Shown here in pieces: positions 1,402 through 19,461 of a DNA stretch of 25,376 bases. The notes under the pieces were generated by a model. That model saw nothing but the letters and a program-made list of their open reading frames with translations, did no database searches and was not told where the DNA came from. This stretch comes from a virus (taxonomy: Duplodnaviria > Caudoviricetes): positions 1 through 25,376 of the IMG/VR virus record IMGVR_UViG_3300017913_001487; one strand, written 5' to 3'. The stretch's first letter is position 1, and each line of letters starts with the position of its first letter. The translations under genes were made by a program, and so were the position numbers.

Positions 1402-1433
1402 GTGCGCCTTACCATTACAGGAGTAATACCTTC

Positions 1434-1825: not shown

Positions 1826-1846
1826 AAACCCCATGACGAAACGCAC

Positions 1847-1867
1847 AACCCGGTACGCCGGGTTTTT
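1847..1867 (+). terminator. Rho-independent terminator
   Basis: AACCCGG-TACG-CCGGGTT stem-loop followed by T run, just after the stop at 1825. Confidence 0.75.
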
Positions 1868-1939
1868 GTGTCTATGGCGATTGGTACGCCATACAGTGCG
1901 CGCCTGTAGCGCGCCCGAAGAGTAACCACGGGGTAAACC

Positions 1940-2329
1940 ATGGAAAAAGCTTTGTCTTTTAATTCGCACCTACATATCGCCGAAACGGCGATTGGTGTTA
2001 CTGAATGTCTCGGGAATGCTTTTGACATTCTCGAAACCGAGCACGCGCCAAAATGGGTGCGCGACGTTGCATCAAATGAAGGCTCCACGGGTTGGCGTGA
2101 ATTCGTCATTGTGGAGCTCGCGCCGTTCATCAATGACGCGCATCGCTTCACGGCTTTATTAAACGGGCCTACCAATGGGCCGGAAATAGACTGTTTTTAC
2201 ACTGAATATATCCCGGCGTTTTTTAGGGCCACGCGCGATTGGTCACATTTCCGCGCTCAAAGTGCGCGTGATGTTGGCATCGCGATTGGTCGCCAATTTG
2301 AACTAAATCAGCCTATACCGTTCGATTAA
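1940..2329 (+). CDS. Hypothetical phage protein
   Basis: 129-aa ORF, GGGGT upstream, same strand as neighbours. Confidence 0.65.
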   Translation: MEKALSFNSHLHIAETAIGVTECLGNAFDILETEHAPKWVRDVASNEGSTGWREFVIVELAPFINDAHRFTALLNGPTNGPEIDCFYTEYIPAFFRATRDWSHFRAQSARDVGIAIGRQFELNQPIPFD

Positions 2330-2552
2330 TTGCGAAATGTGACAAATTCACCAAAATTAATTTTAGGCCATTTTTAGCGCGTTTTTTCGCGCCCGGAGTC
2401 CTATGCATTGAGACCGAATCGCTAAAAATCCGGCTTTGATCGTCGACGGCGTCGCGCGTGATCGTTCAGCGATTCGCGCCGGCGCGCCGCGTCGCGACGT
2501 CGCGCGCCCGTGCCGAAATCGGCCGGAAATCGCGAAAATCCGCTCGCCTACC

Positions 2553-2619
2553 GAAATCCGTCTACATCGGAAACCATCTACACTAGGAAAACCATCTACA
2601 CTGGAAAACCATCTACACC
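2553..2619. repeat. Tandem 16-17 bp direct repeats (GGAAA(A)CCATCTACAC x3 plus one degenerate copy)
   Basis: Copies start at 2553 (degenerate), 2569, 2586 and 2603; overlap the HNH stop codon. Confidence 0.9.
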
Positions 2620-3060
2620 AGGTTTTTTCGCTTCAACTTTTTTCTCAAGTTCAGCAAAAAGTCCTCGACGACGATCGCGCTCTTCCAGAGTTTTGAGGTT
2701 ATGGCAGCGGTGGCAAAGCGACTGAAGGTTTCTACTATCCAGTCTGAGGCTATCATCATCTTTGCGTTCAATGATGTGATCGACCACATCAGCAGCTTTA
2801 GTAATCCCTCTAGCAAAACAAAACTCACAGAGAGGATTAGCACTAATATAAGCACGCCGTAAGTGACGCCAATCGCGACTGCTGTACCAGCGATCTCTTT
2901 TAAGGTCTTCATCTGACATTCTCCCACGACGCTCGGTCGTATTCCTCCTTAACGCACGAGTCTCACGCACGTGCCTCGCGCACAGCCCTCGGGCGCGCCT
3001 ATCACTCACGAGCTCTGTACAACCAGGTGAGCGACAGGGGCGGGGGGCATCATGTGGCAC
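2596..3060 (-). CDS. HNH endonuclease, HK97 gp74-like (terminase-associated type)
   Basis: MP..PRPCRSPGC N-terminus; WYSSRDWRHLR, NPLCEFC, VVDHI, NLQSLCHRCHNLKT. Confidence 0.9.
   Translation of the reverse strand: MPHDAPRPCRSPGCTELVSDRRARGLCARHVRETRALRRNTTERRGRMSDEDLKRDRWYSSRDWRHLRRAYISANPLCEFCFARGITKAADVVDHIIERKDDDSLRLDSRNLQSLCHRCHNLKTLEERDRRRGLFAELEKKVEAKKPGVDGFPV
2613..2912 (-). CDS. Nested out-of-frame membrane protein inside the HNH gene; holin candidate
   Basis: GGGAG-N8-ATG; long hydrophobic stretch IAGTAVAIGVTYGVLILVLILSVSFVLL; basic C-terminus RKKLKRK. Confidence 0.35.
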   Translation of the reverse strand: MKTLKEIAGTAVAIGVTYGVLILVLILSVSFVLLEGLLKLLMWSITSLNAKMMIASDWIVETFSRFATAAITSKLWKSAIVVEDFLLNLRKKLKRKNLV

Positions 3061-3316
3061 CTAAGACCTCCATCAACTTATTGACGTAGAACTGCAGCTT
3101 GCCGGCATCGCGTACCGGGCGTTCATGCTTTTTCATCATGCGCCACTGGTACTTGATCGCGTTGCCGCGCAGGTAGCCTATGAACTCTTCGTCTGAAAGC
3201 TGGGCCTCGATGACATCAATGCACTCAAGGCCGCTTTTCGATTGATAATGTTGTGGTTTGTTGATCTGCTTACGCAGTTCGTCCCATTCGCTGGGTGTAA
3301 CGTTGTCTATAGACAT
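3050..3316 (-). CDS. DUF3310 protein (T7 gp1.7-like putative nucleotide kinase)
   Basis: INKPQHY..ECIDVI..GYLRGNAIKY.WR motif; AGGAGG RBS. Confidence 0.85.
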   Translation of the reverse strand: MSIDNVTPSEWDELRKQINKPQHYQSKSGLECIDVIEAQLSDEEFIGYLRGNAIKYQWRMMKKHERPVRDAGKLQFYVNKLMEVLGAT

Positions 3317-3398
3317 GTCTCCTCCTATGGAGACCCGCAGTGCGTTTTAGTGACTCGCAGACATACACGGGTCGAACAACGCGTTACGACGTTGTTCA

Positions 3399-3418
3399 TA
3401 CCGTCGACGTTTCAGTCA
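3399..3418 (-). promoter_or_regulatory. Putative phage RNAP promoter, copy 3 (TGACTGAAACGTCGACGGTA)
   Basis: 18/20 identical to copies at 9727 and 12712; same orientation; at a gene boundary. Confidence 0.65.
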
Positions 3419-4227
3419 ATTGGCTCTACGGGGTAGTAAGTGGGTACTGTGGGATGCCAGAGTCTTACGAGCGCCTCATCGGGGTCGTAGTCTTCTGAAC
3501 GTAGGATTCGCGCTAGTCGCGCTTGTCTGACAGCTTCGTCTTCTGCCTCAAACTCACTGTCGTAAGCGTTGCGGTACAGGTCTAGAACGATCTGCCAATT
3601 ACGGCGTAGGTAAAACTCAGGGTGCGTGTCGTCCGGGGCGAGCAGCGCTTTGGCTGCTTTGACCTTACCGACTCTAGGACAGCCGCCGTAGCCGTCTGTG
3701 CTGTCACCTGTGAGCGTTTGCGTCAGCCAATTGTAGTTAGCCTGGTTGACGCTTACTTCGACGATTTCACCGTGGCGTGGGTTATAGATTCGCCCCGGGA
3801 TCGTAAGCATGTCCTTGTCAGACGAAACGATGATCGTGTCGTCCGGGTTGTCGGTATGCAAAATGCCTAAGACGTCGTCACCTTCCATGCCTCCTATGCT
3901 GAAAGCTTCGAGCTGCTTACGAGCTCGCTCAATGAGCGGCCAGTACAGTTCGGGCTTAGGCTTAGGGTTACGGTTGGCTTTGTAGTCAGGAAAGACCGAC
4001 TTGCGAAAGTTGCTGCGGTCGTCCGGTGACAAGACCATCATAAACGCTTCACAACCACAGCCTAGGAGGATCTCCTCGACTGCGGTCATTGCCTGGTAGT
4101 AGGCGTCGTCAAGCGTGATGTCTTTGCGTGGTGTTCCGTCGAACGGGTCTTTACCCTCGGCCATTGAGGCCGCTTGATAAAAGACGATGTCCGCGTCAAT
4201 AAGCGCAATCACTCTCAGGCCCTCCAT
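3412..4227 (-). CDS. 5'-3' exonuclease (T7 gp6-like)
   Basis: LIDAD, NFRK..PDYKANR, EGDDVLG, SSDKD, GDSTDGYGGCPRVG motifs; downstream of DNA polymerase. Confidence 0.92.
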   Translation of the reverse strand: MEGLRVIALIDADIVFYQAASMAEGKDPFDGTPRKDITLDDAYYQAMTAVEEILLGCGCEAFMMVLSPDDRSNFRKSVFPDYKANRNPKPKPELYWPLIERARKQLEAFSIGGMEGDDVLGILHTDNPDDTIIVSSDKDMLTIPGRIYNPRHGEIVEVSVNQANYNWLTQTLTGDSTDGYGGCPRVGKVKAAKALLAPDDTHPEFYLRRNWQIVLDLYRNAYDSEFEAEDEAVRQARLARILRSEDYDPDEALVRLWHPTVPTYYPVEPID

Positions 4228-4411
4228 AGTCCATCGCCTGACGTAGCTGTGCTTTCATCTCTTCGTCAGCGTCGGACCAGCCGGCGTCCCAAAAGTTGAA
4301 GAACACGGCGTTGGCATAGCGACCGTAAGGGTTGGCGTCACGTGGTTGTTTAAGGAAACGAGCTTCGCGGCCGGCCCTATAAAAGGCAGCCTCTTTCACT
4401 GTCATAGTCAT
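4196..4411 (-). CDS. Rmf/CrpP-like small protein
   Basis: Y.AG.EA...NPY...W.AGW pattern resembles ribosome modulation factor; GGAG RBS. Confidence 0.6.
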   Translation of the reverse strand: MTMTVKEAAFYRAGREARFLKQPRDANPYGRYANAVFFNFWDAGWSDADEEMKAQLRQAMDYGGPESDCAY

Positions 4412-4420
4412 TGTTATCTC

Positions 4421-6268
4421 CTAGTGGGTGTCGGCCCAGGATTTGCCGATTTGGTAGTCCCCGGCGAAGGGGACGGGAAAGCCCAGCCGTTTACCGGCTA
4501 GGTTTATAGACATGGCGAACAGCCCCCCAACCAACTCAGCGACCTCTGGTCGTGAACTGATCTGCTGTTCGTCATGAACGTTGGCGAGTAACGCGAAGTC
4601 CTCGCCGTGTTTAAGACCCTCTGCGGGTGTGAGCTCATGGATAAAAAGGGCCAAGGCTTGCTTCATCAGAACACTACCGCTGCCCTGTAGTAGCGTGTTC
4701 AATGCCGTTCGGCTTGCACTAGCAGCCCTACGGCCATCGGGGAGGGTTAGATAACCGTTCTCCTCTGCTTGGTGCTGAACGCTTCTGATGAGCTCGCCTA
4801 GGCCAAGTACGCCAGACTCTATGTCACGTCTGGCACCCCGACCTAGGGCAACATACTGAGATCGGGGAGGAGCCACTTGTCCTGCCGCAGCTAAGTCGTC
4901 TGCGACAATGGAGCCGATTTTGCCGTCACCCGCACCATATATAAGTGCGTAGTACAGCGTTTTGGCCGAATCACGACTATGAAGTCCTGCGGCCTTTTGG
5001 TTGATTGAATGCGGGTCTGTTGCTGTCTCTTTACTACCTTTGAGTACTGACTCCGCGTAGGCGCCGTTATCGTACTTGTGGAGGTAGCAAGCCAGCATTC
5101 TTAGCTCTAACGCGTCAGCGTCACAGCCGACCAGCACATGACCTTCGTCTGGTATCCAGAGCGAGCGCATCGCTTTTGATTTGTCGACTTGCGCCATGTT
5201 GGGACGCGAGTGCGACATGCGATGTGTACGAGAGCCACACGAGCGAACGTAGCCGTGCATACGGCCGTTGCGGTGCAACTTTAACCAGGCATTGTTACCG
5301 TCGGCCAACATGCCCATTTGCTTCTGCTTACGATAGTAGTCGCGGAGCAGGGCGGCTTCGGGGTAATCGAGGTCGGCAAGTGTGGACTCGTCGAGCTTCG
5401 GTCTGCCGTCGTCGGTAAAGATCGTAGGCTTCCAGCCGTATTGCTGAGACAGTCGATAGGCGACTTGCTCACGGCTACCGGGATTGAACATCTCGACTTT
5501 GCACTTGGTAAGCGGCGCCCCGGCTATGTAGCCCTGACGACGGTTGTTACCTTTGGGTGTAAAAGTCTGGTCAGTAACCCAGCGCTTTTTACCGAAGTCC
5601 CAGCGACCACGCTCAGGCTTTAGCTGCGGTTCGAAGACCTTAGACAGCGTGAGCTCAAGCTTGGCGATGTCGTCGGTTAGCTTGCATGACAGTTGCTCAG
5701 CGGCTTTTACGTCGAAGCGGAAGCCGTGATTGCTCTGTAAGGCGAGGGCGTGTTGTACCTGGTGTTCGAGCTTAATAGCGGGACGGTAGTCATTACCGTT
5801 GCGTAATAGCTTGTTGAGCTCCTTTTGCAGGTAGCGGTACAAGACCCACGTTAGCTCGACGTCGCGTTCCATGTAGGTCCGCATCTCGTGCGAGTAGCCC
5901 GACCAGTCGTGGTGGTCACCCTTGGGATAGTTGAACTGCTCGCCGTACGTCGCTAGGGCGATAGATCGTCGGCTAGGTTCTAGTAGACCAGCTACGACCA
6001 TTGTGTCCCATTGTTGCTCGTAGCGGAGCGCGTCAGGGTACAGCTTGTTGATAGCTGGCATGTCGAAGCCGATCACGTTGTGACCGATGACTCTGTCAGC
6101 TTTAGACAGCCGCTCGATACCTTCAGCTAGACGTGGGAGGTCGGGGTCGTGATCTGTGTAAGTCTGGACCTTGCCGTCTTCGGCGCTTGCGATGCCTATG
6201 CACCATATCGTTGAAAGTTCGTCGAGCAGCCCGTTTGTTTCGATGTCGTAAACGAGGCTCTCTCCCAT
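4421..6268 (-). CDS. DNA polymerase family A (T7 gp5-like) with 3'-5' exonuclease
   Basis: YDIETNG, GHNVIGFD, YMERDV exo motifs; motif A DADALELR, motif B RDSAKTLYYALIYG, motif C VHDE. Confidence 0.97.
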   Translation of the reverse strand: MGESLVYDIETNGLLDELSTIWCIGIASAEDGKVQTYTDHDPDLPRLAEGIERLSKADRVIGHNVIGFDMPAINKLYPDALRYEQQWDTMVVAGLLEPSRRSIALATYGEQFNYPKGDHHDWSGYSHEMRTYMERDVELTWVLYRYLQKELNKLLRNGNDYRPAIKLEHQVQHALALQSNHGFRFDVKAAEQLSCKLTDDIAKLELTLSKVFEPQLKPERGRWDFGKKRWVTDQTFTPKGNNRRQGYIAGAPLTKCKVEMFNPGSREQVAYRLSQQYGWKPTIFTDDGRPKLDESTLADLDYPEAALLRDYYRKQKQMGMLADGNNAWLKLHRNGRMHGYVRSCGSRTHRMSHSRPNMAQVDKSKAMRSLWIPDEGHVLVGCDADALELRMLACYLHKYDNGAYAESVLKGSKETATDPHSINQKAAGLHSRDSAKTLYYALIYGAGDGKIGSIVADDLAAAGQVAPPRSQYVALGRGARRDIESGVLGLGELIRSVQHQAEENGYLTLPDGRRAASASRTALNTLLQGSGSVLMKQALALFIHELTPAEGLKHGEDFALLANVHDEQQISSRPEVAELVGGLFAMSINLAGKRLGFPVPFAGDYQIGKSWADTH

Positions 6269-6270
6269 AA

Positions 6271-6480
6271 CTACTCCGGCAACTCAGTTAGTAGTAGGTA
6301 GTCCTCGAGGGTGAGGGTGATTTTTTTCTGTGGTGATTGTTGTTTAACGAAGCCAATAAACTTGTGCATGGCGAGGACGCGAGTGCGGCGTGAGATAGAG
6401 TTCACGTCCGACGCGTTGTACGCACCCATAGCTTTCGATACCAGCTTGTAAGCCTCTTGGGCGCTTATCTCACATTGCAT
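6271..6480 (-). CDS. Hypothetical protein
   Basis: 69-aa ORF tightly packed in the replication operon. Confidence 0.65.
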   Translation of the reverse strand: MQCEISAQEAYKLVSKAMGAYNASDVNSISRRTRVLAMHKFIGFVKQQSPQKKITLTLEDYLLLTELPE

Positions 6481-6695
6481 ATTTGAGCACCTATTTCTTT
6501 CTCTATTTCAATACACAACATGCGCGTTAAGGGGTGGGTAGGTAGACCAGAACTGTCGACCTGCATTGAGTACGCGGCCATTTCAGCCGCGATGTCGCGC
6601 ATGACGAGTCTGAGGACAGACTCCTTGTTCTTTTCCACTGACGCGTGGACGGCGCGCTTCACCTCGTAGGCGAGCGCTTCGGGATCAAGTTCCAT
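6465..6695 (-). CDS. Hypothetical protein
   Basis: AGGAGG RBS; tightly packed. Confidence 0.75.
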   Translation of the reverse strand: MELDPEALAYEVKRAVHASVEKNKESVLRLVMRDIAAEMAAYSMQVDSSGLPTHPLTRMLCIEIEKEIGAQICNVR

Positions 6696-6708
6696 ATTTC
6701 CTCCTGCG

Positions 6709-8328
6709 TTAAAACGGAACGTCGCCTACCGGGTCGGTGGGCGTGAAGGTGTCGTCGTAGTGCAACAGCCGGCCGCGTTCGTTGCAGTAGTGCAACTTGC
6801 CGGCGGGACCGACAACACCATAGGGTCGATTCTTAAGAAGACGGAGCTGTGTGACGTTAGAGTCGTCGCCTTGCTGGTTACGCTCTGAGGCAATGACGAT
6901 GTCTGCCAATTGCTCAAGGGCGCTAGAGCCGCGAAGGTCTGTGAGTGACACAGAGCCTCCGTCGTTAAAAGAGTCTTTGTTGTTGTTGCGGCGCAGGTGC
7001 GCCACGGTGATGAGACCAACACCCGTCTGTTCTACAAACAGGCGTAGGTTCGTCATCAGGTTATCAATCGCTTTCCGCTCGTCGTGGTCCTTTAGACCAG
7101 AGATGGCGAGATGGATGTGATCAAAGATAATGAAGTCACACTCAGCGCCAACAGCGAAATAGCGAAGCTTTCCAACGAGTTCATCAATGTCGGAGCATCC
7201 CCATTCTGTGTTGAAGACACACTTAGTGATGTAGTCATCAAATGACTGTTGCCATTGATCACGGCTTATTCGTTCGGGACTCTCTAGCAAGTCGGAGAGC
7301 GGGACTTGTTGGTCGATCGCGACCATCCCGGTAACTGTCTTGTTGAGGCTTTCCTCAAGCATGACCCAACCGACTTTTTGGTTGTGTTCAGCCGTCAGAT
7401 AAAAGCCGATCTCACGAGCCAGTGTCGACTTACCGATACCAGAGCCGGCGCAGAGCAGTACGAGCTCACGTTTGCGTAAGCCGCGTATTGCTGCGTTTAG
7501 CTCGACGTAAGGTATGTCGAGACCTTTGGGTACACCTTTGAGTACGTCAGCGAGGCTTATGTCCTCACCGGCAATGATGCCGTCAGGTCTGTAAGGCTGA
7601 GCGCTGTAGATAGCACTCTTGAGCTCACCGTCTCGACCAGCCTTTACCATCTCGTTTGGATCTTTGAGCGGTAGCTTTGCGATCTTGGCGAGACCGGGCT
7701 TTAGGATGGCGGCGCACTCACGTGCTGCCTTTGTGCCTGGTTCGTCTTGGTCGAACAAAAAGACGACCTCCTCAAACTGTTCGATCCAATGGATCTGTTT
7801 GCGGATGGTCTTGATGGCGCCCTGTGCGCCGCTTGGGACGCTGACGACTTGCCACGTAAGGCCGGTGACCTGAGCGTAGGAAAGACAGTCGATCTCGCCT
7901 TCTGTGATGACTAGGCGTTGGCCCGGTGACCAGAGTTGCTGACCGAATAGGCCAGCCTTGTTGAGGTCGCCGGTGACGTAAAAGTCTTTGTCGGGTGTAC
8001 GGACCTTCTGAGCAACGACAGCGCCTTGCTTGTCGTAGTAGGGCGCATAGTGCTTGCCCTCGTTGTCAACGGTGTAATTAAACTTGCGTAGAGTTTTTTC
8101 GAAGAGTCGCCGCTTGGGCAGGTCAACGAATGCACCACGGGTAGTAGGTGTCTGGATTTTGGTTGAATTTTTTGTTTGTTGTGGTTGGTCAGCGTCAGCG
8201 GTCTGCTCGACGCTTTTCTCGTAATGGTGACAGCTAAAACAGTAGCCGTGACCATCATCGTAGATCGCGAAGGCGTCTGAGCTCGAACACGAGACACAGG
8301 CTTCCTTGCGTATGTAGTTGGATGACAT
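6709..8328 (-). CDS. DNA primase-helicase (T7 gp4-like)
   Basis: Zn finger CVSCSSSD..YCFSC, TOPRIM ITEGEID and FDQD, Walker A AGSGIGKS, IFDH, DLRGS, KNR; start moved to ATG 8328 (GGAGG RBS). Confidence 0.97.
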   Translation of the reverse strand: MSSNYIRKEACVSCSSSDAFAIYDDGHGYCFSCHHYEKSVEQTADADQPQQTKNSTKIQTPTTRGAFVDLPKRRLFEKTLRKFNYTVDNEGKHYAPYYDKQGAVVAQKVRTPDKDFYVTGDLNKAGLFGQQLWSPGQRLVITEGEIDCLSYAQVTGLTWQVVSVPSGAQGAIKTIRKQIHWIEQFEEVVFLFDQDEPGTKAARECAAILKPGLAKIAKLPLKDPNEMVKAGRDGELKSAIYSAQPYRPDGIIAGEDISLADVLKGVPKGLDIPYVELNAAIRGLRKRELVLLCAGSGIGKSTLAREIGFYLTAEHNQKVGWVMLEESLNKTVTGMVAIDQQVPLSDLLESPERISRDQWQQSFDDYITKCVFNTEWGCSDIDELVGKLRYFAVGAECDFIIFDHIHLAISGLKDHDERKAIDNLMTNLRLFVEQTGVGLITVAHLRRNNNKDSFNDGGSVSLTDLRGSSALEQLADIVIASERNQQGDDSNVTQLRLLKNRPYGVVGPAGKLHYCNERGRLLHYDDTFTPTDPVGDVPF

Positions 8329-8338
8329 AGCCCCTCCG

Positions 8339-8755
8339 TCATGTGATCCAAAAGACTTTAATGCGCGTGTGCGCTTCCTCCCTTTGTCGAGCGAATCGTT
8401 TAGAAGCAAAGAGGTACTCAATCTGAACGTCGTCTTTCCAGAAGACGTCGCTAGACGTCATACAGTCGAGTGGGAGTTTGACCAGGTTGTCGATGTCGTG
8501 CCTGGGCGACTCCCTCTTTGTAGTCTTGGGTTTCGAACAGACGAACTCTAAAGCAACGATGAGACGTTCTGTGCCTAGGTAGCGCCAGTTCGGCTTGGCG
8601 TAGTTAAACCAAGTGGCCCAATCTTTTACGTATTGCTGATGACGTTTGCTGTAGTACGTACCGTAGCGACTGACCTTCGGTCGTGACGCGGGTACAGGGT
8701 CTATCGGGACGTATAGTTCTTGTGGTCCCGATAGCCCGTCAAAGTCTAATTGCAT
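8339..8755 (-). CDS. rusA: RusA family Holliday junction resolvase
   Basis: PVPASRP N-terminus; catalytic DIDNLVK..D and WKDDVQI. Confidence 0.85.
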   Translation of the reverse strand: MQLDFDGLSGPQELYVPIDPVPASRPKVSRYGTYYSKRHQQYVKDWATWFNYAKPNWRYLGTERLIVALEFVCSKPKTTKRESPRHDIDNLVKLPLDCMTSSDVFWKDDVQIEYLFASKRFARQREEAHTRIKVFWIT

Positions 8756-9153
8756 AGCTCATCCCGTATCTGACGTAGGTCGTCAGAAGCTTGTTCGGGC
8801 GTTACGTCAAACCACTCGCCGTGCAGACGGACGGAGTGGGTTTGGTCGTAAAACTTGTGAACGATGGTACGGGTGTCTTCTGAGAAGAAGACGAAGTGAA
8901 AGCGATAGTCACAGAACGGATCGCCGCAGTTGTAGTTACGTAACCGATTAACAGGGTTAACCGTTTCGCCAACTTTGCATAATTCCGCGTAACGTGGGTG
9001 ACGTAGCACGTAGACGTAGCCCGGAGACTTAAGGGCTTCTATCTGCGCTTCCTCCTGCTGCGCCTCCCACGCCACGCGAAATGCTTTGCGTTGCGACGGC
9101 GTAAGGTTATTCCTCCAGACAGATTGTGTCATCCCTAACGACTGATAAATCAT
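8746..9153 (-). CDS. T5orf172/MUG113 (GIY-YIG-like) domain protein; start uncertain (frame open to 9258)
   Basis: GYVYVL..KVGET..RL..YN.GDP..GEWF. Confidence 0.8.
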   Translation of the reverse strand: MIYQSLGMTQSVWRNNLTPSQRKAFRVAWEAQQEEAQIEALKSPGYVYVLRHPRYAELCKVGETVNPVNRLRNYNCGDPFCDYRFHFVFFSEDTRTIVHKFYDQTHSVRLHGEWFDVTPEQASDDLRQIRDELCN

Positions 9154-9190
9154 CGTATCTCTGCGATGACGCTCTCTGCGACCTTGGTTA

Positions 9191-9700
9191 CTAGAAAACC
9201 TCTTCTTCGCTTGTTGTTTGGCCGACTGTAAATCCATCTTCTGGCCCTCCGAAGTCATCTGTGCCTGTAGCGCGTTTCTCGATGAGACGTACGCCGTTGA
9301 GATACAACGTCACACCTTTCTGCGGACCCACGTTGTAGGCCTTTGCAGAGCCGGCAACGCGGATTAGATCGCCGCCGTAGATCTTGACGTCGTCAGGTAG
9401 ACGATTACCGCCGGAGTCCTGCATAGGTGGCTTAGACTTGGATTTAAACTTCACTTTGATCCCGCCATCTTCCAAGTTGCGTAGGGGCGACTTGTAGTCC
9501 TTGGGATCAGCGTTAGGCCATTCAGCTTGTGCTGCTTGATTGATGGCTTCCTGCAGCGCCTTGAGGGTTTCCGTTTCATCTTGTTGAAGAATCGCGGTGA
9601 CCTCGTAGGCGTTGCTAGGGTAGGCCGATGTTGTGTCTGGTTTATCGAGCGACGGGTAAGCCGCCGAAAACGCAGAAGTTACGAACTTGACGTATGCCAT
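9191..9700 (-). CDS. Single-stranded DNA-binding protein (T7 gp2.5-like)
   Basis: AYPSLDKPD, KFKSK, IYGG, GVTLYLNGVRLIE; acidic tail ending in Phe (EEEVF); AGGAGG before ATG 9700. Confidence 0.88.
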   Translation of the reverse strand: MAYVKFVTSAFSAAYPSLDKPDTTSAYPSNAYEVTAILQQDETETLKALQEAINQAAQAEWPNADPKDYKSPLRNLEDGGIKVKFKSKSKPPMQDSGGNRLPDDVKIYGGDLIRVAGSAKAYNVGPQKGVTLYLNGVRLIEKRATGTDDFGGPEDGFTVGQTTSEEEVF

Positions 9701-9726
9701 TTTTCCTCCTGGTGGGCTTTTGGTCA

Positions 9727-9746
9727 TACGGTCAACGTTTCAGTCA
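9727..9746 (-). promoter_or_regulatory. Putative phage RNAP promoter, copy 2 (TGACTGAAACGTTGACCGTA)
   Basis: Identical to 12712-12731; directly upstream of ssb, as T7 phi2.5 is. Confidence 0.72.
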
Positions 9747-10070
9747 CACACCTGCGACTGGTTCGTCAGACAACCCGTTTTCGTCGACAGGGTCGTTGTA
9801 GTCCATGTCAGTGATCTCTTCGGGCTCAGACGGCTTGGTAGCAACTGAGTCGAGTAGCTTGGTGACTTCATACTTGACGTCGTAGGCGGGGTCACCGTCA
9901 GCCGGGTTGTAGACTGCACGACAGATCATACGGCCGGCCTTATCAAACGCTATGTCGCCGCGCTTCATTGAGTCTGGATCGACCGTAGTGATGACTGTGC
10001 ACTTTCTATCTACGTGAAAGAAAATACCTACGTGCTTACCGCCTTTAGCTGTTTGTTTAATAGTCTTCAT
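9744..10070 (-). CDS. Hypothetical protein with acidic C-terminus
   Basis: AGGAG RBS before ATG 10070; lies between RNAP and SSB. Confidence 0.75.
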   Translation of the reverse strand: MKTIKQTAKGGKHVGIFFHVDRKCTVITTVDPDSMKRGDIAFDKAGRMICRAVYNPADGDPAYDVKYEVTKLLDSVATKPSEPEEITDMDYNDPVDENGLSDEPVAGV

Positions 10071-10094
10071 TATCGACAACTCCTGTAGTTGTAG

Positions 10095-12566
10095 TTACGA
10101 AAAAAAGTAGGTGGCATTGATGAGCTCGTTCGCTACATCAAGGTCGCCTTGCTTCGGTGGGTCGCTTAGGTGTGCATCGTCTGGTAGCACAGCGACCTGT
10201 AGTGGATGAAAGTGTTCGGCAATCCAGTTGCCGCTAAAGAGCTCTACACCGACCTCACGGATGATTTGATTTAGTCTGCCAAGGTGACACGCATGGACAG
10301 CGTAAGAGTCGTGTACAAAGGCCATCTCAGTGATGCCTTCAGCGGCGAGACGGTTAGCAACCATCCGACACATCGTGGCATCGAGTGAGTGGACTATGTT
10401 AGGCGCCGCAGCGCCGGCCATCTTAGAAGGTTGGATTTTGTCTGTTGGACGACGTAGTCGACGCATCCAGTTATCGAAGGTCCGTACCGGGGTGTCCTTT
10501 AGCACCACATACTTCTGTTCGACCAGGCACCCGTCAGGTGTCTTCCACGTGAGACTACGTTGTTGTTTCGCTAGGACCGTAGCGACCTCACGGAAGTAGT
10601 CCATGATCTTTACGGCTTCAACAACAACAGCAACCCTTGCTTCAACTATCCAATCACGCATGTAACCCGCCAACTTGTGACGGGCTTGTATTGGCGTGAG
10701 GCCTTCAAACTCACTGGTATCAGGCACCGGTAGCCCGTCGCAGTGACGATCGGCTACTAATTGCTCCCTTATACCTTCACGCGTTACGCCGTAGGCGGTC
10801 GTCATGACCGCTCGTTTAACGACCTTGCGCGCTTTGTTTTCGTGGGCCATGACCGTATTCCATGTCGAGGCGATCGCCTTCAGTTCCCCAGAGGACGTGT
10901 CGTCCGACAATATGGAAGAGATTATTGACTGCACGGATCGAGCGACCTCGATGTAGAGGTCTTTCCTTGTCGGCGCAGACGTGCAGTTCGTCTTCTCCGC
11001 ACCGACCAAATCCTTTCCCAAGAGAGACAAAATCTGTAATCCGTTACACGTACCGTCGACAGCGATCGGTATATGACTAATAAAGGACGTAGGGTCCGAT
11101 GAGCGTAGGGCGCGCATCAGTTCCATAGCGACCGCATAAAACGAAGCGGGTTCGTCCGCTTGGGCGCACAGTCGCAGGGCGACCGTATCGTCGTCGAAGT
11201 TGACGATCTCGTCTTCGAGGTCTTCGATAAAACGCATACGCTCAACGAGAGACAGCTTGTCCTTACCGAAACAGTTAGCCGCGTGGATCTTAAGCGCGTT
11301 GAGGCCGTTCTCACCTAGCGGTGTACCGTTATAAAAACGAATCAGTGCCTTACTGATATCGTCGCCCTGGTTGGTGAGCATTTGGTTTGACGGATAGAGT
11401 CGCCCTCTAAAGTCAAAGCTGTGCGGTTGCCAGAAGGGCTGACCCATGAGCTCTTGGGCGTGAAGCATCTGTCGACGGAAGGTGATTGCCTTAGAGTTTT
11501 GTGAGACGTAGCGAGCGCTTTCGTCTTGGAACTCCTGTCGAGCGGCTGCTTGCTCTTTCTCTTGTAAGGTCTCCCACAATTCCTTTGGTAGCCGTTGAGG
11601 CTTCTGTAAAGGTATCTGAGGCGCAAGTTGCGGGTTGCGCAACAAGAAATTGTAGACCTCTTCATTGATGTCCCATGCGGTTCGCTGGATTGTGTTGAGC
11701 GCCGCAATCGCGTCTTTGGACGGTGTCAGCTTATGAGGGTGCCACTCTGTTCTATATATAGAGTGGTGAACCATGTAGTAGCCACCTTCGAGACGTCCGG
11801 TCTCTTCATTAATAGACCAGTCACGTGGCGGTACCCGCATAGGCTTTTTGACGGGTGACGTTGCGGCCGCTAGGGCGTGTAGTGATTCGACGTCATCGAG
11901 GAAGTCGTCTGTCCAATAGACAACCTGCGATTCCGCTTTGCCGCGACTACCTGTTTGGCGCAACTCAATCACGTTAGGGTGCGTGATCATGAAAGAGTCG
12001 ATAAGGACAGCGCCTAGGCTTAAGCAAACCTTTTTACGCTCCCACATCTCCTCCATCTCTAGTGATTCTTTGAGACGTTTTTCTAAATTGGTGATGAAGC
12101 GCTTGTGTTGAACCTTAGAGGACAGCACGTGAGCGTTTCGCTTGAGGAAACGAGTCGCAAACTTTTTGTCCGCAGAGACCCAGCGTTCGAATCGTATCTG
12201 ATTAGTGAAGGCGACACCCATCGCAATCGCGACCTGTTGGTATGTTGGCGCCTTAGAGCCGGATAGTTGTTGCATTAGTGACGTCACGACTGTGATGGCG
12301 CCCTGTAGCGGATCGGCCATCGGTATCATGCGTTGCCAATCTTGCTTTTGGCCCGGCTGTAATAGTTTAGCTTCGGCTGCTTCTTGTCGAGATTTGATTG
12401 CTTCTGCCAGTGGGTGTGCAAGATCAAACAACAAACGCTGTCCAATCTTAGTGTCTTGCAAATCGAGTTTCTCAATGCTCTCCATGTATGCCTGTTCAGC
12501 TTCGCTATACATCTTAGCTTCCCAAAGGCATTCGACTAACTCGAAGTTATTGGTGTCAGTACTCAT
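10095..12566 (-). CDS. Single-subunit (T7-like) DNA-directed RNA polymerase
   Basis: DFRGRLY, motif A VDGTCNGLQ, motif B RKVVKRAVMTTAYG, PNIVHSLDA, motif C VHDS, C-terminal YFFS. Confidence 0.98.
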   Translation of the reverse strand: MSTDTNNFELVECLWEAKMYSEAEQAYMESIEKLDLQDTKIGQRLLFDLAHPLAEAIKSRQEAAEAKLLQPGQKQDWQRMIPMADPLQGAITVVTSLMQQLSGSKAPTYQQVAIAMGVAFTNQIRFERWVSADKKFATRFLKRNAHVLSSKVQHKRFITNLEKRLKESLEMEEMWERKKVCLSLGAVLIDSFMITHPNVIELRQTGSRGKAESQVVYWTDDFLDDVESLHALAAATSPVKKPMRVPPRDWSINEETGRLEGGYYMVHHSIYRTEWHPHKLTPSKDAIAALNTIQRTAWDINEEVYNFLLRNPQLAPQIPLQKPQRLPKELWETLQEKEQAAARQEFQDESARYVSQNSKAITFRRQMLHAQELMGQPFWQPHSFDFRGRLYPSNQMLTNQGDDISKALIRFYNGTPLGENGLNALKIHAANCFGKDKLSLVERMRFIEDLEDEIVNFDDDTVALRLCAQADEPASFYAVAMELMRALRSSDPTSFISHIPIAVDGTCNGLQILSLLGKDLVGAEKTNCTSAPTRKDLYIEVARSVQSIISSILSDDTSSGELKAIASTWNTVMAHENKARKVVKRAVMTTAYGVTREGIREQLVADRHCDGLPVPDTSEFEGLTPIQARHKLAGYMRDWIVEARVAVVVEAVKIMDYFREVATVLAKQQRSLTWKTPDGCLVEQKYVVLKDTPVRTFDNWMRRLRRPTDKIQPSKMAGAAAPNIVHSLDATMCRMVANRLAAEGITEMAFVHDSYAVHACHLGRLNQIIREVGVELFSGNWIAEHFHPLQVAVLPDDAHLSDPPKQGDLDVANELINATYFFS

Positions 12567-12584
12567 AAACAGTAACCCCCTGCG

Positions 12585-12692
12585 CTACTTCTACTTCTAC
12601 TTCTACTTATTGTTGATGTTGGTTGATGTTGAAAGCAGTCCTTACGTACTCACAGTACCGTCTAGTACTGTACAGTTACCTCCTTAAGTAAC
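12585..12692. repeat. Repeat/hairpin cluster: (CTACTT)x4, (GTTGATGTTG)x2 and two stem-loops; candidate origin or structured leader
   Basis: Repeats at 12585-12608 and 12612-12631; ACAGTAC/GTACTGT 12652-12671; GTTAC/GTAAC 12675-12692. Confidence 0.7.
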
Positions 12693-12711
12693 CTTTTGGC
12701 AGACTTCTTCT

Positions 12712-12731
12712 TACGGTCAACGTTTCAGTCA
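12712..12731 (-). promoter_or_regulatory. Putative phage RNAP promoter, copy 1, upstream of the RNAP gene
   Basis: 20/20 identity to 9727-9746. Confidence 0.7.
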
Positions 12732-12775
12732 ACGGCTGTATCCAAACATCCTGTAGCGCTTCTGCACAACCCCCT

Positions 12776-12915
12776 TGTTACAAAAAAAATACATCAAGCG
12801 ACTACGGTGTCGTTTTATGCGGCAGGTGGGCTGTCACAATTTCACGAATGTGACAAAACTGATTTATTTTATTTAAGACTCTCTATAGCACGTTGTGATA
12901 TCTGCATTTGTGACA
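12776..12915. promoter_or_regulatory. Divergent RNAP/repressor control region with operator-like sites
   Basis: TGTCACA-N10-TGTGACA (12832-12855), further TGTKAYA heptamers, TGCAGATATC-N8-CTATAGAG on minus strand (12881-12906), AT-rich. Confidence 0.65.
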
Positions 12916-12958
12916 TAACATTATGGCATCGCGCTGCTGCGGGGAGGAAGCTGTAGCC

Positions 12959-13297
12959 ATGAATGTCGAAAAGAAAACGAACGGTAATCGAGTTACCAAA
13001 ACGACCCAAGAAAGACGAAAGCGTCTTGGGTCAATTATAAAAGACCAGAGGTCTGCACAAGGACTCACACAAGCCCAGTTTGCTCAACTAGTCGGTCAAG
13101 AATATTTCACTATGATCAGTCAGGTTGAGCAGGGTCACGTACGAGTCCCTCCACACGACACTGAACTATGGGCGCGTATTCTAGGCGTCGACACAAAGGC
13201 GTTTGCTCAAGAGTGCGTTAAGGCGTACGAGAGCCTTGAGTACTACAACGCTATCTTCGGCCACAACGCTGAAGGGCCACTTACTGGTAAAAAGTAA
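12959..13297 (+). CDS. XRE-family HTH transcriptional regulator, probable immunity repressor
   Basis: LGSIIKDQRSAQGLTQAQFAQLVG..ISQVEQG..ARILGVD; GGAGG upstream of ATG 12959; divergent from RNAP, next to attP/int. Confidence 0.85.
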   Translation: MNVEKKTNGNRVTKTTQERRKRLGSIIKDQRSAQGLTQAQFAQLVGQEYFTMISQVEQGHVRVPPHDTELWARILGVDTKAFAQECVKAYESLEYYNAIFGHNAEGPLTGKK

Positions 13298-13303
13298 GTA
13301 AAC

Positions 13304-13528
13304 GGTCACAGATTGGTCACACGGGTCTGTAACTTATTGTTTTTACAATTAGTTCAATTCCGGCCCCGGGGACCACTGCCTCAATAGCATTTAATAGCGT
13401 TAAATACCAAACTGTATATAAAACAGTAGCTTATGGATTTACGCTTCTCTCCTTAAATACTTTTTAGTAGTCTTAAATACGCCGTTCCAGTATCAAGTGG
13501 TCACAAAATGGTCACAGAAATGGTCACA
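13304..13528 (+). other. attP: tRNA 3'-end core (13352-13375) flanked by arm-type GGTCACA repeats
   Basis: GTTCAATTCCGGCCCCGGGGACCA reads as T-loop, T-stem, acceptor strand, A73 and CCA; GGTCACA at 13304, 13315, 13499, 13510, 13522; IHF-like TAACTTATTGTTT 13330-13342. Confidence 0.88.
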
Positions 13529-13547
13529 AGTCGGCAGGAGGAAAAAC

Positions 13548-14522
13548 ATGTCAGGGACAGTTGTAAAGCGAGGCGACCGCTTCCTAGCTAGGGTGCGAGT
13601 AAACGGACAGCGTTTGAACAAGACGCACAACACAAAGCGTGACGCGAAACAGTGGATCGCCCAGGTATTAGCAAACCCAGAGGCGCCCGGTAGCGAGCAC
13701 ACTTTAAACGATTTAGCACAGCGCTATCTTCGTGAGTACATACCAAAAATGCGGTCGCCGCGGACACCGACAAATCGCATAACCTACTACCAGCGCACAC
13801 ACCCCGATCTGTTTGCAAAGAAGCTGCACGAGGTCACTAGAGAGGATCTCGAAGACCTGATCGACGAGCGGCTAACTATAGTAAAAAGCAGTAGTGTGAA
13901 CCGTGACCTCAATGTGCTCAGTTCTATGTTCGCCCAGGGCCGAAGATGGCGCATGATGACCAATGAGCCATTCAAAGATTTACGCCGTCCCAGCGACCCG
14001 CCTCCACGAGATCGTAGAGTAACTGAGGAAGAGATTGAGCTCATCCTGGTAGCGTTGGATTACTCGCCTGACTACGCGCCGACAGAGGTTCGTATGAGGG
14101 TCGCTGTGGCATTTCTGTTTGCCATAGAGACAGCTATGAGACTTGGTGAGTTGTGTCAGATTCGACGCGAGCATGTGTATGACAAGTACGTACACCTACC
14201 AGCCAACACAACAAAAACAAATGTAGCTAGAAACGTTCCGTTAAGCGGTGAGGCTCGTAAGCTGATCAAGCGACTAGATGGTGTCACCGGCGAGTTACTG
14301 TTTGACCTTGACCGTGACAGCGCCAGTAAACTTTTTTCAAAAGGCGTAAAAAAAGCGGGTGTCGAGAACCTTACGTTCCACGATACCCGCCATGAAGCGA
14401 CAACCCGGTTAGCCCAAAAGTTGCCTGTGCTGGACCTAGCACGGGTAACAGGCCATCGTGACTTGAAGCAACTGATGACCTATTACAATAAAGATGCGAG
14501 AGAGCTCGCCGACCTCCTATGA
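13548..14522 (+). CDS. int: Tyrosine integrase
   Basis: ETAMRLGEL (R), TKT (K), FHDTRH (HxxR), TGH, TYY (Y); AGGAGG before ATG 13548. Confidence 0.96.
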   Translation: MSGTVVKRGDRFLARVRVNGQRLNKTHNTKRDAKQWIAQVLANPEAPGSEHTLNDLAQRYLREYIPKMRSPRTPTNRITYYQRTHPDLFAKKLHEVTREDLEDLIDERLTIVKSSSVNRDLNVLSSMFAQGRRWRMMTNEPFKDLRRPSDPPPRDRRVTEEEIELILVALDYSPDYAPTEVRMRVAVAFLFAIETAMRLGELCQIRREHVYDKYVHLPANTTKTNVARNVPLSGEARKLIKRLDGVTGELLFDLDRDSASKLFSKGVKKAGVENLTFHDTRHEATTRLAQKLPVLDLARVTGHRDLKQLMTYYNKDARELADLL

Positions 14523-14720
14523 GTTACAAGCCCACTCAATGACTTCCCGCGCTATCCAGCGCCGCCCGTTCACACGGGCTTTTGGGAAGTTGTGTTTCTT
14601 AGACACGTAGTCAACGAAACGTTTACGACTAAACCCTAAATACTCCGCACAGGCCGAAGCGTCCCACAGGATGTGTTCATCTTTGACCTGACGAGCGACA
14701 GCTTCACTCAACTGCATCAC
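14517..14720 (-). CDS. Excisionase / AlpA-like winged-HTH protein
   Basis: CAEYLGFS..FPKA..RRWIAREVIEW; convergent on int with overlapping ends. Confidence 0.8.
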   Translation of the reverse strand: MMQLSEAVARQVKDEHILWDASACAEYLGFSRKRFVDYVSKKHNFPKARVNGRRWIAREVIEWACNS

Positions 14721-14907
14721 TAGCTCCCCCTACATACAATCGCAAATGCGCGGCAACAGATCGGTAGATATAGAGCGGTATGTCTCTTCTACCTGACTTC
14801 CAAGCACAATATGAGCCGGTGTAGTTCACCCCCAGAAGGCGAGCCGCCGCGACAGGCCCACCTACGAAGCCCTCAAGAGCCTCTAACTTTTCTACCGCAT
14901 CAACCAA
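14704..14907 (-). CDS. Small HTH DNA-binding protein (Cro-like)
   Basis: AAARLLGV..WKSGRRDIP pattern. Confidence 0.7.
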   Translation of the reverse strand: MVDAVEKLEALEGFVGGPVAAARLLGVNYTGSYCAWKSGRRDIPLYIYRSVAAHLRLYVGGASDAVE

Positions 14908-15112
14908 AATTTACTCCTTCTGGTTTCCAGTTCTCGTAAATTTGTTTCGCCTGTTTACCCATACCCTGCTCTTGTAACGACAACATGCACTCTCTAATCA
15001 AATTGATCTGCTCGTTTCCCTTTTTCCAAACCCTTTGGTCATCAGAAAATGAGTAGTACCAATCATGAGCAGCGCATAAATCTCTCAGATGATCTAACGT
15101 GAATACAGACAT
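14900..15112 (-). CDS. Hypothetical phage protein (HDWYYSFSDD motif)
   Basis: Strong GGAGGAGG RBS; first gene of the xis operon. Confidence 0.75.
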   Translation of the reverse strand: MSVFTLDHLRDLCAAHDWYYSFSDDQRVWKKGNEQINLIRECMLSLQEQGMGKQAKQIYENWKPEGVNFG

Positions 15113-15125
15113 GATTCCTCCTCCA

Positions 15126-15173
15126 ATAGATATGTCTATCGGTGATTGTTATATAGGAGTTTACTATAGTCAA
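15126..15173 (-). promoter_or_regulatory. Candidate promoter/operator for the xis operon
   Basis: TTGACT -35-like hexamer; degenerate TATATA-N8-CGATAG site (15136-15155); ATAGA-N4-TCTAT dyad (15126-15139). Confidence 0.45.
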
Positions 15174-15592
15174 TCGGGACACATGATTTCTGCTAGTCTA
15201 ATTGCTCTTCCTTTGACCTGACCTGCCCACTTTGACGACAGCATCTGCTTCTTAGCTTCTTGCATGTCGCCATCGAGGATGGCCTGTCGTAGTAGCTTGA
15301 AGCTACGAAGGCGGTGTGATCCTAAGTTAAACGCCATGTTTATGAGCACGGCTTGTCGCTCTGGCGACAATGAGTCGAACTCGACTTCCCCCAGGTACTT
15401 TCGAGCATCGTCGTAGGCAGACTGTAAGTCTGTCTTTAGCATCACCTCAGCTTCTGCTTCAGTGATACCGTTGATGCCTATAGCCCTGCCGTAGCCAATT
15501 GTGAGCACGTCTGCTGTGCAGTGGTACGGCATGAGTGAAAGGCCTTCATCGACCTTTATCTGTTCGGTCGCTATTTCTATTGCTTCTACCAT
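15170..15592 (-). CDS. Lysozyme (GH24, T4-like endolysin)
   Basis: DEG...Y.C...LTIGYG, NMAFNLG, SKWAGQVKGRA. Confidence 0.92.
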   Translation of the reverse strand: MVEAIEIATEQIKVDEGLSLMPYHCTADVLTIGYGRAIGINGITEAEAEVMLKTDLQSAYDDARKYLGEVEFDSLSPERQAVLINMAFNLGSHRLRSFKLLRQAILDGDMQEAKKQMLSSKWAGQVKGRAIRLAEIMCPD

Positions 15593-16137
15593 CGTTCAAT
15601 CAGATCCATTTTGTAACGTATGAAATTGTCCGCTCCATACTCCACAGACGGGCCGTCAGTGTTTAAAGAACATTTAAGGGTAGGGGCGTAGGTAGCTGCC
15701 GTTGCTAACGACACGGTCCCGGTATCGCGAGCCGGGGGATCGACGATTGGTGTCGAGCCGTCTAGCCCTAGGTACTGCATAAGCTGGTTGTTGAGCGTCG
15801 AGCTACTTCGGTTGTAGTACTCACCGATGCGTAGCGACGTGTCGGTGTACGCTGAGTCGTCTCTCAACAGCGGCATACGGAACGCAAAGATAGTGTGCCG
15901 GCCGTCGATTAGTCGGAAGAACTCGATGAACGTCTCGTAGTCCTGACGCGAGAGGACAGGGTAGGTGACACTCATCTCAATTCGAACACCGCCGACGCTG
16001 CGTGTCTGCCGGCGCATGGATCTAGCGTCAGCGACAAGCGTCGTCCGGGCGTGTCGGATTTTGAATGATTCTGGTTTGATGGTTGTTGGAAAAAGCTGGT
16101 ACGGCCCGTCGCCGTTTTGGAATGTATAAGTTGCCAC
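15586..16137 (-). CDS. Distal-tail (Dit, T5 pb9-like) family protein
   Basis: FPT..TTLV..S.RRQTR..GG..MSVTYP.LSR..F...GR..F pattern recalls siphovirus Dit N-terminal domains. Confidence 0.55.
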   Translation of the reverse strand: MATYTFQNGDGPYQLFPTTIKPESFKIRHARTTLVADARSMRRQTRSVGGVRIEMSVTYPVLSRQDYETFIEFFRLIDGRHTIFAFRMPLLRDDSAYTDTSLRIGEYYNRSSSTLNNQLMQYLGLDGSTPIVDPPARDTGTVSLATAATYAPTLKCSLNTDGPSVEYGADNFIRYKMDLIERW

Positions 16138-16670
16138 TATTCACCCCCTAGTGGATTAAGACTATCTATAGCGCGCCACATGTCATTCACCTCTGTCTGA
16201 TACTTTCTGAGGTCTTCCTCGATAGATTCGAGTTCCTTGAGCTTGCCTTCGACGCGTAGCTGAGTTTCGGATGCAAGCTTTTCTGTTTCAGCTTGCCTGG
16301 TCATGAGCTCGTTTAGTTGGCTTTGTTTATCGAGGATGTTTTCAAGCGTGCCGCCAAGCGTTGCCAGTTTGCCTTGTAGATTCGCTACGTCAGCCGCTGT
16401 CATCGACTGCTCCATCGACGCGATGCGCTTCTCCATCTCTTGCAATCTCTGTGCGTTGCTTGCACGTAGATCATCGAACCGGGCGTTTAGCGTGTCGGCC
16501 CCTGCGGCGACTGCGTCGACTGACGACGTCTGCGCTTCGAGGTCGCTCATAAACGTGCTGAACTGATAAATCCCTCCTGCGATCGTTGACGCAAATCCCA
16601 GAACGACCATAATGACGACACCGCGCAGTCTGACGTCGCCTACGGTAAGTTCCATGTCTTCAATACCCAT
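16137..16670 (-). CDS. Membrane-anchored coiled-coil protein
   Basis: AGGAG before ATG 16670; TM GVVIMVVLGFASTIAGGIY followed by a long heptad-rich segment. Confidence 0.75.
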   Translation of the reverse strand: MGIEDMELTVGDVRLRGVVIMVVLGFASTIAGGIYQFSTFMSDLEAQTSSVDAVAAGADTLNARFDDLRASNAQRLQEMEKRIASMEQSMTAADVANLQGKLATLGGTLENILDKQSQLNELMTRQAETEKLASETQLRVEGKLKELESIEEDLRKYQTEVNDMWRAIDSLNPLGGE

Positions 16671-18109: not shown

Positions 18110-18122
18110 GATTCCTCCAGAT

Positions 18123-18146: not shown

Positions 18147-18153
18147 TTAGTAC

Positions 18154-19458: not shown

Positions 19459-19461
19459 GGA

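Follow-up and report, generated by a model that had tools for sequence, protein, structure and literature searches.

A marine siphovirus lineage, likely temperate, that carries a T7-type RNA polymerase and has predicted cohesive ends

The DNA analysed here, referred to as the window, is the whole of IMG/VR virus record IMGVR_UViG_3300017913_001487 (25,376 nt; Duplodnaviria, Caudoviricetes). It carries a T7-type single-subunit RNA polymerase (RNAP) and a T7-like replication block, read divergently from a predicted XRE-family repressor with an adjoining integration module. The window is probably the right-hand 25 kb of the genome of a marine siphovirus that is likely temperate and has predicted 3′ cohesive ends; the genome is likely 42.5 kb long, and a lytic programme run by the phage's own RNAP would be held off by XRE. 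Its gene content and order, the head and tail genes of an overlapping record, the anatomy of the phage attachment site (attP) and two sequence motifs with their positions were observed directly. With its relatives, the window forms a real, coherent and apparently undescribed hybrid lineage of family level, widespread and marine, whose packaging and integration resemble those of lambdoid phages, whose transcription and replication resemble those of T7, and which is a member of neither group.

A T7-type polymerase and replication block in a conserved gene order

The RNAP gene (10095-12566, minus strand) encodes 823 aa, matches PF00940 with an E value of 1e-82 and retains the T7 catalytic residues D504, K584, Y592 and D753. 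The best matches of its product, among the 2,794 GenBank phage records that gave a hit, reach no more than 29% identity. The same strand holds the replication block (3412-9700), recognized by profile matches and by synteny in relatives, which comprises a gp2.5-like single-stranded DNA-binding protein (SSB; 9191-9700), a T5orf172 protein (8746-9258), a RusA-type resolvase (8339-8755), a T7 gp4-type primase/helicase (6709-8421), PolA (4421-6268) and a 5′-3′ exonuclease (3412-4227). A DUF3310 protein (3050-3316) and a gp74-like HNH endonuclease (2596-3060; PF01844 and phrog_144) come last on this strand. Open reading frame and profile scans of the window found every gene named in a first-pass annotation of this DNA at its place. 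The RNAP-SSB-resolvase-primase/helicase-PolA-exonuclease block that it had described as syntenic is present, with the resolvase now specified: the profile is of RusA type, and T7 endonuclease I was ruled out. The HNH gene is the final late-strand gene ahead of a cluster of genes at the genome end and the cohesive end site (cos), a position conserved in relatives, and we infer that it has a packaging role. PolA is nearest to that of a group of temperate Autographivirales (35-38% identity); S2B and jiawei, its top matches, were rejected as known members of the lineage, both being annotated as T7-type Autographiviridae.

An alignment of 12 RNAPs, used as the query, returned 44 viral and 55 metagenome loci. 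Fifty-nine loci (some of them duplicates), with RNAPs 39-100% identical, share one gene order as far as their contigs reach: a distal tail protein (Dit)-like gene, lysozyme, a small helix-turn-helix (HTH) gene, an integrase slot and XRE; then, on the other side of a divergent junction, RNAP-SSB-T5orf172-RusA-primase/helicase-PolA-exonuclease-DUF3310-HNH, convergent with a GP88 gene. XRE diverges from RNAP in all 46 lineage loci with enough flanking sequence and in 0 of 27 other RNAP loci; the loci are related and include duplicates, so the counts are not independent, which weighs against taking them at face value. In a FastTree phylogeny of 69 RNAPs, the lineage has a support of 1.00 and lies among uncultured sequences, apart from the T7, SP6-like, KP34-like, Xp10, Pasto, LUZ100, S2B and marine references (12 ingroup cultured references). 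Its deep placement is tentative, given a long-branch root and a choice of uncultured sequences by similarity to the query. Many uncultured single-subunit RNAPs (P0026-P0059), several on contigs of 38-61 kb, branch with the lineage and away from cultured references. A divergent member, L028 (RNAP 39%), also carries XRE and a DUF6538-type integrase; its RNAP match (5291-8247) takes up 2,957 nt for 823 aa, a length that points to a possible interruption of the gene.

Head, tail and genome ends

A record from the scan for the large terminase subunit (TerL), G408, has an end identical to the last 121 nt of the window. The frame of the tail-tip or fibre gene, whose 3′ part occupies 19709-25376 (minus strand; S74 chaperone by profile match), runs on into it, and the summed length is 42,513 nt. 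G408 encodes a small terminase subunit (TerS, PF05119), TerL (PF03354 and PF20441), an HK97-type portal (PF04860), an S78 protease and a capsid protein (PF05065), together with a lambda-like tail tube and a tape measure. Its DNA is 75% identical to the arm of a relative, G003. The overlap makes the join with the window probable; against it stands its position in a tail-tip gene with segments common to co-occurring phages, where read depth is uneven. The product of the full tail-tip gene (window 19709-25376 plus G408 1-4815) would be about 3,450 aa long and would end in an S74 chaperone; its body is a mosaic, pieces of which are also found in co-occurring phages.

The relative G001 (40.7 kb, 98% complete, RNAP 52%) encodes TerS, a PF03354/PF20441 TerL, an HK97-type portal, protease and capsid protein, as well as connectors, a lambda-like tail tube, chaperones and a tape measure; its structural arm and RNAP block lie on one contig. 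G003 (RNAP 86%) also has tail genes. The HK97-type head and lambda-type tail genes on the overlapping G408 and in relatives G001-G003 bear out the first-pass expectation of a long tail. Two results speak against the contrary arrangement named there, a T7-type tail with direct terminal repeats: the T7-type connector PF12236 is absent from G001 and was found in S2B as positive control, and contig ends show a gap rather than an overlap. In G001 (L100 18250-19043) and G408 (15981-16310), terS and terL are separated by one or two small genes with hydrophobic stretches, a possible holin or spanin.

The Dit-like gene (15586-16137, minus strand) gives a weak match on its own sequence, and 43 of 44 homologues match phrog_1302, ‘distal tail protein’ (best E 5.6e-6), in line with its earlier naming. 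It is displaced to a position after the tail-tip gene; the interval from tape measure to hub has no gene of Dit size in G001, G003 or G408. Its structural model has a predicted local distance difference test score of 90.8, and a PDB sequence search with the protein was empty.

The right, cos-proximal end of the genome probably lies at 1-70 of the window, the place where relatives' contigs stop and junction contigs run on into terS; no contig crosses the window's own end junction. Beside it, an end cluster of four genes (281-2329, plus strand) reads inward against HNH, keeps its place and orientation in relatives and likely holds early genes, among them a GP88-family protein (520-1401, plus strand; PF17338, E 6e-21). 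Contigs of the relatives L133 and L138 show HNH, the convergent end cluster and then terS. Six distinct contigs of relatives have 11 nt between ...ACGG and CTT..., and contigs stop exactly at ACGG in 5 of 10 right-end (GP88-side) cases and start exactly at CTT in 5 of 24 left-end (TerL) cases. Such a gap pattern arises when a 3′ overhang is lost in library blunting, and the 11-nt gap is the signature of a 3′ cos end. Together with the class of TerL, it upholds the earlier call of cos-type packaging; the nearest TerLs are those of HK97-like temperate phages (about 42%). We hold the HK97-type head, the long tail and cos with high confidence. In other marine phages (L172-L190), GP88 relatives (about 50%) adjoin a lysozyme gene, with no further window genes in the flanks fetched.

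A candidate RNAP promoter and a proposed route to the late genes

An 18-nt core occurs in three minus-strand copies in the window, against 0.01 expected. As 23-nt motifs on the minus strand, these candidate promoters stand before RNAP (P1, 12709-12731), where the effect would be positive feedback, before SSB (P2, 9724-9746) and at 3396-3418 (P3), a putative late promoter directed toward DUF3310, HNH, cos and terS. A 23-nt generalization matched 45 times on the coding strand of 464 kb and never on the opposite strand, with 0-3 matches in shuffled sequences; one match, in L002, is off position. All 39 distinct contexts in relatives precede RNAP (20), SSB (13), DUF3310 (4) or HNH (2), and a looser form of the motif is present in all three subclades, its 41 contexts every one on the coding strand. 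Since the pattern was built from sites of this kind, its conservation is circular, a reservation that does not extend to strand and position. The motif is likely a promoter of the phage RNAP, and the annotated phage promoters of LUZ100 likewise stand before RNAP and SSB (PMC10134795). Weighing against this assignment, the motif holds a TGAC-N6-GT half-palindrome and could be an operator. In a sigma-70 scan of two regions, 12560-13560 had 0 sites and 1-3500 had 2, which does not exceed the yield from shuffled sequences.

In the programme that we propose, the DNA would circularize at cos after entry, and host polymerase would read the end cluster (GP88), XRE(-int) and a little RNAP. During lysis, RNAP would amplify itself from P1 and drive the replication genes from P2, while transcription from P3 would pass through DUF3310 and HNH, antisense through the end cluster and over the sealed cos into terS and the head, tail and lysis genes. 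These genes are without a copy of the promoter motif, and none was found in any structural arm scanned. The job proposed for P3 is that of Q and pR′ in lambda. We favour late transcription from P3 across cos with modest confidence. Operator-like sites before terS, of the type described below, weigh against it: they may mark a host promoter at that place, in which case the late genes would not need read-through from P3. A transcript from P3 would also meet a weak terminator-like hairpin (258-278).

With the same virion and lysogeny, the phage RNAP might instead serve only the RNAP, replication and HNH genes, perhaps in a priming role, with head and tail genes read by host polymerase from a repressible promoter right of cos. 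This division of labour would fit the lack of promoter copies in the structural arm and the operator-like sites that lie 49-117 nt into G408 and, in relatives, ahead of terS, and it would spare P3 transcripts a passage through 2 kb of antisense genes. We nevertheless regard it as unlikely, since the conservation of a P3 dedicated to two small genes makes most sense if it is a late promoter, and host promoter scans (of 1-3500 and 12560-13560 only) did no better than chance. In lambdoid phages, too, HNH lies at the end of the late transcript before cos.

An operator-like palindrome and its candidate binders

The predicted repressor is a 112-aa XRE-family HTH protein (12959-13297, plus strand) with HTH matches only and no peptidase domain. 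It had no match among 50,697 GenBank phages, and its recognition region is conserved in the lineage. A second small HTH-like protein, a candidate for a Cro-like protein or a recombination directionality factor, is encoded at 14704-14907 (minus strand) and is conserved at 50-98% identity in relatives.

In 859 kb, the 17-bp palindrome TATAG-N7-CTATA was found in 42 distinct contexts, some few of them one site counted on both strands; spacers of 3-6 and 8-12 gave 0-4. Its sites follow the RNAP stop codon, occupy the interval between RNAP and XRE, and precede terS, the end cluster and the small-HTH/xis operon. Sites were scored with a position weight matrix trained on 24 sites outside the XRE-RNAP intergenic region (threshold p<0.05). 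Three operator-like palindromes precede the end cluster of the window (214-230, 229-245 and 260-276; scores 8.7, 11.5 and 10.3), a place where L133, L134, L138 and L046 have exact copies. Another (10071-10087; score 8.4) lies just past the RNAP stop codon, as in L002, L045, L053, L046, L064 and L057. The strongest, an exact TATAG-N7-CTATA at 15152-15168 with a neighbour at 15137-15153, stands before the 14900-14704-xis operon, and its place is kept in most relatives. Between RNAP and XRE, the window has two weak sites (12739-12755 and 12884-12900; p=0.34, not significant), which share their offsets from P1 (-25 and -171) with significant sites in L002. Across the lineage, 19 of 30 distinct XRE-RNAP intergenic sequences were significant; the sequences are related and do not amount to 30 independent tests.

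Judged from these positions, the palindrome is likely an operator, with XRE its likeliest binder. During lysogeny, XRE dimers would occupy TATAG-N7-CTATA beside P1, after RNAP, and before the end cluster, terS and the xis operon. The first-pass proposal that a repressor gates RNAP directly draws indirect support from the operator-like palindromes of relatives at the XRE-RNAP region and is weakened by the poor scores of the window's own sites; on balance, we think direct gating fairly probable. Two points weigh against it: the remaining 11 of the 30 intergenic sequences, the window's own among them, were not significant, and the protein at 14704-14907 is an equally conserved candidate binder.

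The palindrome might be bound by that small HTH protein, acting in a Cro- or Cox-like manner, or by both proteins, with XRE one arm of a two-protein switch or a damper of early genes. The small protein is conserved in the lineage beside the attachment site, the strongest palindrome precedes its own operon, as autoregulation would look, and it has HTH look-alikes (in the Atlas, at 0.92; 24% of the members of one carry HTH_3, a lead only). We find this improbable: it is XRE that is read divergently from RNAP, its gene runs into the start of the integrase gene in the tRNA-Gly type, and its recognition region is conserved. A lysogen, moreover, needs the xis-side operon silent, which is consistent with XRE binding there.

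TGTCACA and YGAC-N6-GTCR were set aside as operators once the stronger palindrome emerged. TGTCACA/TGTGACA inverted repeats are present at 12833-12920, between RNAP and XRE, and at 2335-2350, after the end cluster, and may be a second binding motif.

Attachment site, integrase and probable lysogeny

The attP site (13304-13528, plus strand) has a core that is a tRNA 3′ end (13352-13375), with two arm-type repeats to its left (13304-13321) and three to its right (13498-13528); attP of L002 has the same layout, with co-varied repeats. It is followed by a tyrosine integrase (13548-14522, plus strand; profile match) and, convergent with the integrase, an AlpA-like HTH protein, the predicted excisionase (14517-14720, minus strand; HTH_17 and phrog_668). 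Among the loci fetched, this integrase type is confined to the window, L001 and L002. Across the lineage, the slot holds four types without mutual BLAST matches, and the integrase is a swappable cassette. In the commonest type, the integrase gene overlaps the stop codon of XRE and a tRNA-Gly gene comes next, seen beside the integrase in 12 of 23 loci scanned. Int would insert the genome at a tRNA 3′ end, tRNA-Leu-like here and tRNA-Gly in many relatives.

That the phage is temperate, as the first-pass annotation had it, is very likely for the lineage: attP is intact, and each of the 33 loci counted, duplicates included, has an integrase, without exception on the XRE strand (the integrase queries were drawn from the same loci and were confirmed as integrases separately). 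Several results weigh against it. A GTDB scan found no prophage of the lineage (3 unrelated loci only), and the att core matched none of 401 sampled Pseudomonadota genomes, so no host is assigned. XRE, moreover, is without a CI protease domain and unable to cleave itself as CI does, there is no adjacent cro and there is no LexA box. The sole sign of integration is a 579-nt contig of sequencing run X1, in which tRNA-Leu-like sequence (read from a 30-nt loose end) is joined to the att core and arm-like sequence; 4 differences in 47 nt mark it as a related element, not the window phage. An integrase relative (46% identity, clustered with a protein from a Thalassolituus metagenome-assembled genome) was too weak for naming a host.

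The description of this region as a lambda-like lysogeny switch was an overstatement. Lambda CI has a C-terminal S24 self-cleaving domain, and XRE has HTH only; cro is the divergent first lytic gene in lambda, and here RNAP comes first, with the small HTH gene 2.1 kb off beyond int and no cro between XRE and RNAP. No LexA-type box accompanies them, and the integrase cassette is swappable. A CTGT...ACAG sequence at 13412 was rejected as a LexA box, being 15 bp, and no CTG-N10-CAG occurs in 12500-13600.

The empty prophage search and the four unrelated integrase types in one slot could instead describe a mainly lytic lineage whose integrase cassettes are passengers acquired at a recombination hot spot. 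We give this little credence: the integrase is retained in 33 of 33 loci and invariably on the XRE strand, attP is intact with arm sites that co-vary, and a tRNA-Gly gene adjoins the integrase in the 12 loci mentioned.

Assembly and habitat

The runs that match the window best are seawater metagenomes; runs X4-X16, with small word shares, were left out of the habitat evidence. In run X1, a single contig or unitig covers 68-19501 with zero differences; X1 is a possible source of the window and hence not independent support. Run X2 contains a 4,059-nt contig spanning XRE, int, lysozyme and Dit. L001 (99.0% over about 13 kb) and L002 (90.6% over 12.8 kb) are colinear with the window, and both span the junctions. 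Read depth is uneven in the tail-tip region only. A chimera of a T7-like podovirus and a siphovirus, formed through assembly and foreseen at first pass as something read mapping might expose, is refuted already and has next to no probability left: the uneven depth that might suggest one is confined to the tail tip, one unitig covers 68-19501, L001 and L002 run across the junctions, the gene order is maintained in dozens of contigs and in relatives whose RNAPs are 47-94% identical, and G001 and G003 each hold RNAP and siphovirus tail genes on a single contig.

Relation to known phages

The known neighbours combine only two of the three traits: Xp10-type phages are without an integrase, and temperate T7-like phages are podoviruses with co-directional MarR-int-RNAP. 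Xp10 (Xipdecavirus) and phiL7-like phages such as BUCT603 are siphoviruses of about 44 kb with an HK97-type head, a lambda-type tail and 3′ cohesive ends, and they share with the lineage a single-subunit RNAP and a right-end HNH gene (PMC2248197; PMC9294509 gives a phiL7-like example of an RNAP-bearing siphovirus). The annotation of Xp10 lists neither an integrase nor a repressor; its early operon, with RNAP close to the end, is convergent with the late genes, and its six promoters are all clustered in a single region (PMC2248197). In the window lineage, by contrast, RNAP comes first, replication and late genes share one strand and the promoters are dispersed. Only 1 of 14 G001 structural proteins (the portal, 31%) and 3 of 32 window proteins match Xp10, whose RNAP is 29% identical to that of the window and sits on another branch of the tree. 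The lineage thus has the 3′ cos siphovirus form and single-subunit RNAP of Xipdecavirus, but not its shared proteome, convergent layout or lack of an integrase.

The temperate Autographivirales (Pasto, LUZ100, CRP-227, HTVC304P and S2B) have the same RNAP-SSB-resolvase-primase/helicase-PolA-exonuclease order, a tRNA-targeting integrase near RNAP and a phage promoter before RNAP, and S2B also uses RusA. They differ in their T7-type structural genes, terminal repeats and co-directional HTH/MarR-int-RNAP, whereas the window lineage has a divergently read XRE regulator and an HK97/lambda-type virion with cos. Autographivirales (formerly Autographiviridae) have direct terminal repeats, which are annotated in S2B and Pasto; the end contigs of the lineage are separated by the 11-nt gap and do not overlap. 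The large single-subunit RNAP of that order is present here (PF00940, catalytic residues), but an HK97-type head, tail tube and tape measure stand in place of a podovirus with T7-type structural genes. A repressor-gated RNAP has been proposed for the temperate members (PMC10134795). All genes of Autographivirales are on one strand, as cited in PMC12541379; XRE, int and the end cluster of the window are on the opposite strand. Placement in the clade of the order is judged from proteome distance together with the phylogeny of core genes (PMC12451628).

Lambdoid HK97-like temperate phages (mEp235, Marinobacter phage AS1 and phiP27/ST64B-type heads) share with the lineage TerL at about 42%, the capsid at 35-39%, the terS-terL-portal-protease-capsid-tail order, HNH before cos and int/xis at a tRNA end. 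The CI protease domain, cro-cII-O-P and Q/N were not detected in the lineage, which has a T7-type RNAP and replisome instead. Shewanella phage KASIA and Colwellia phage 9A are siphoviruses with a single-subunit RNAP, a combination called ‘very rare’ by the authors; KASIA is virulent, has terminal repeats and carries RNAP before the structural module, and is set apart by this description (PMC8541194). The literature searched holds no temperate cos-siphovirus with a T7-type RNAP; subscription journals lay mostly outside that search, and metagenomic catalogues may hold the group unnamed.

A single-subunit RNAP is treated as a hallmark of T7-like podoviruses, and the siphovirus exceptions examined are without an integrase or virulent. 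Here, the RNAP-replisome block appears as a stable module in a temperate lambdoid chassis, across genomes with RNAPs only about 50% identical. The lineage is therefore relevant to hallmark-gene taxonomy and to the idea, discussed in PMC10134795, that T7-like phages had a temperate origin. The lineage may also offer a minimal lysis-lysogeny circuit of one repressor, one polymerase and three promoters, all in predicted roles, and candidate orthogonal RNAP-promoter pairs that differ among the three subclades. We put forward with slightly less than even confidence the fullest version of this proposal, an undescribed family of temperate cos-siphoviruses in which a T7-type RNAP takes the place of the lambda antitermination cascade, one XRE would gate that polymerase through genome-wide operators and one phage promoter would serve all head, tail and lysis genes across the sealed cos. 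If true, it would be the first lambdoid-T7 hybrid able to lysogenize, and one tip of a larger uncultured RNAP radiation.

Other features of the window

A lysozyme (endolysin; PF00959) is encoded at 15170-15592 on the minus strand. Scans of the window found no tRNA genes and no Rfam families. A small protein at 4196-4411 has a weak match to ribosome modulation factor (E 1.7e-4, below the cut-off). The interval 16137-18109 is a three-gene cassette for a coiled-coil protein and two signal-peptide-like proteins; it recurs among the fetched loci only in L001, L002 and L025/L059/L064 and is likely accessory. Three 18-nt direct repeats lie at 2571-2623, just beyond the HNH stop, where the convergent genes of the two strands meet. 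Finally, CAA/CAACC-rich tracts at 12560-12640, before the RNAP start, and at 150-190, near the right end, recur lineage-wide at equivalent places.

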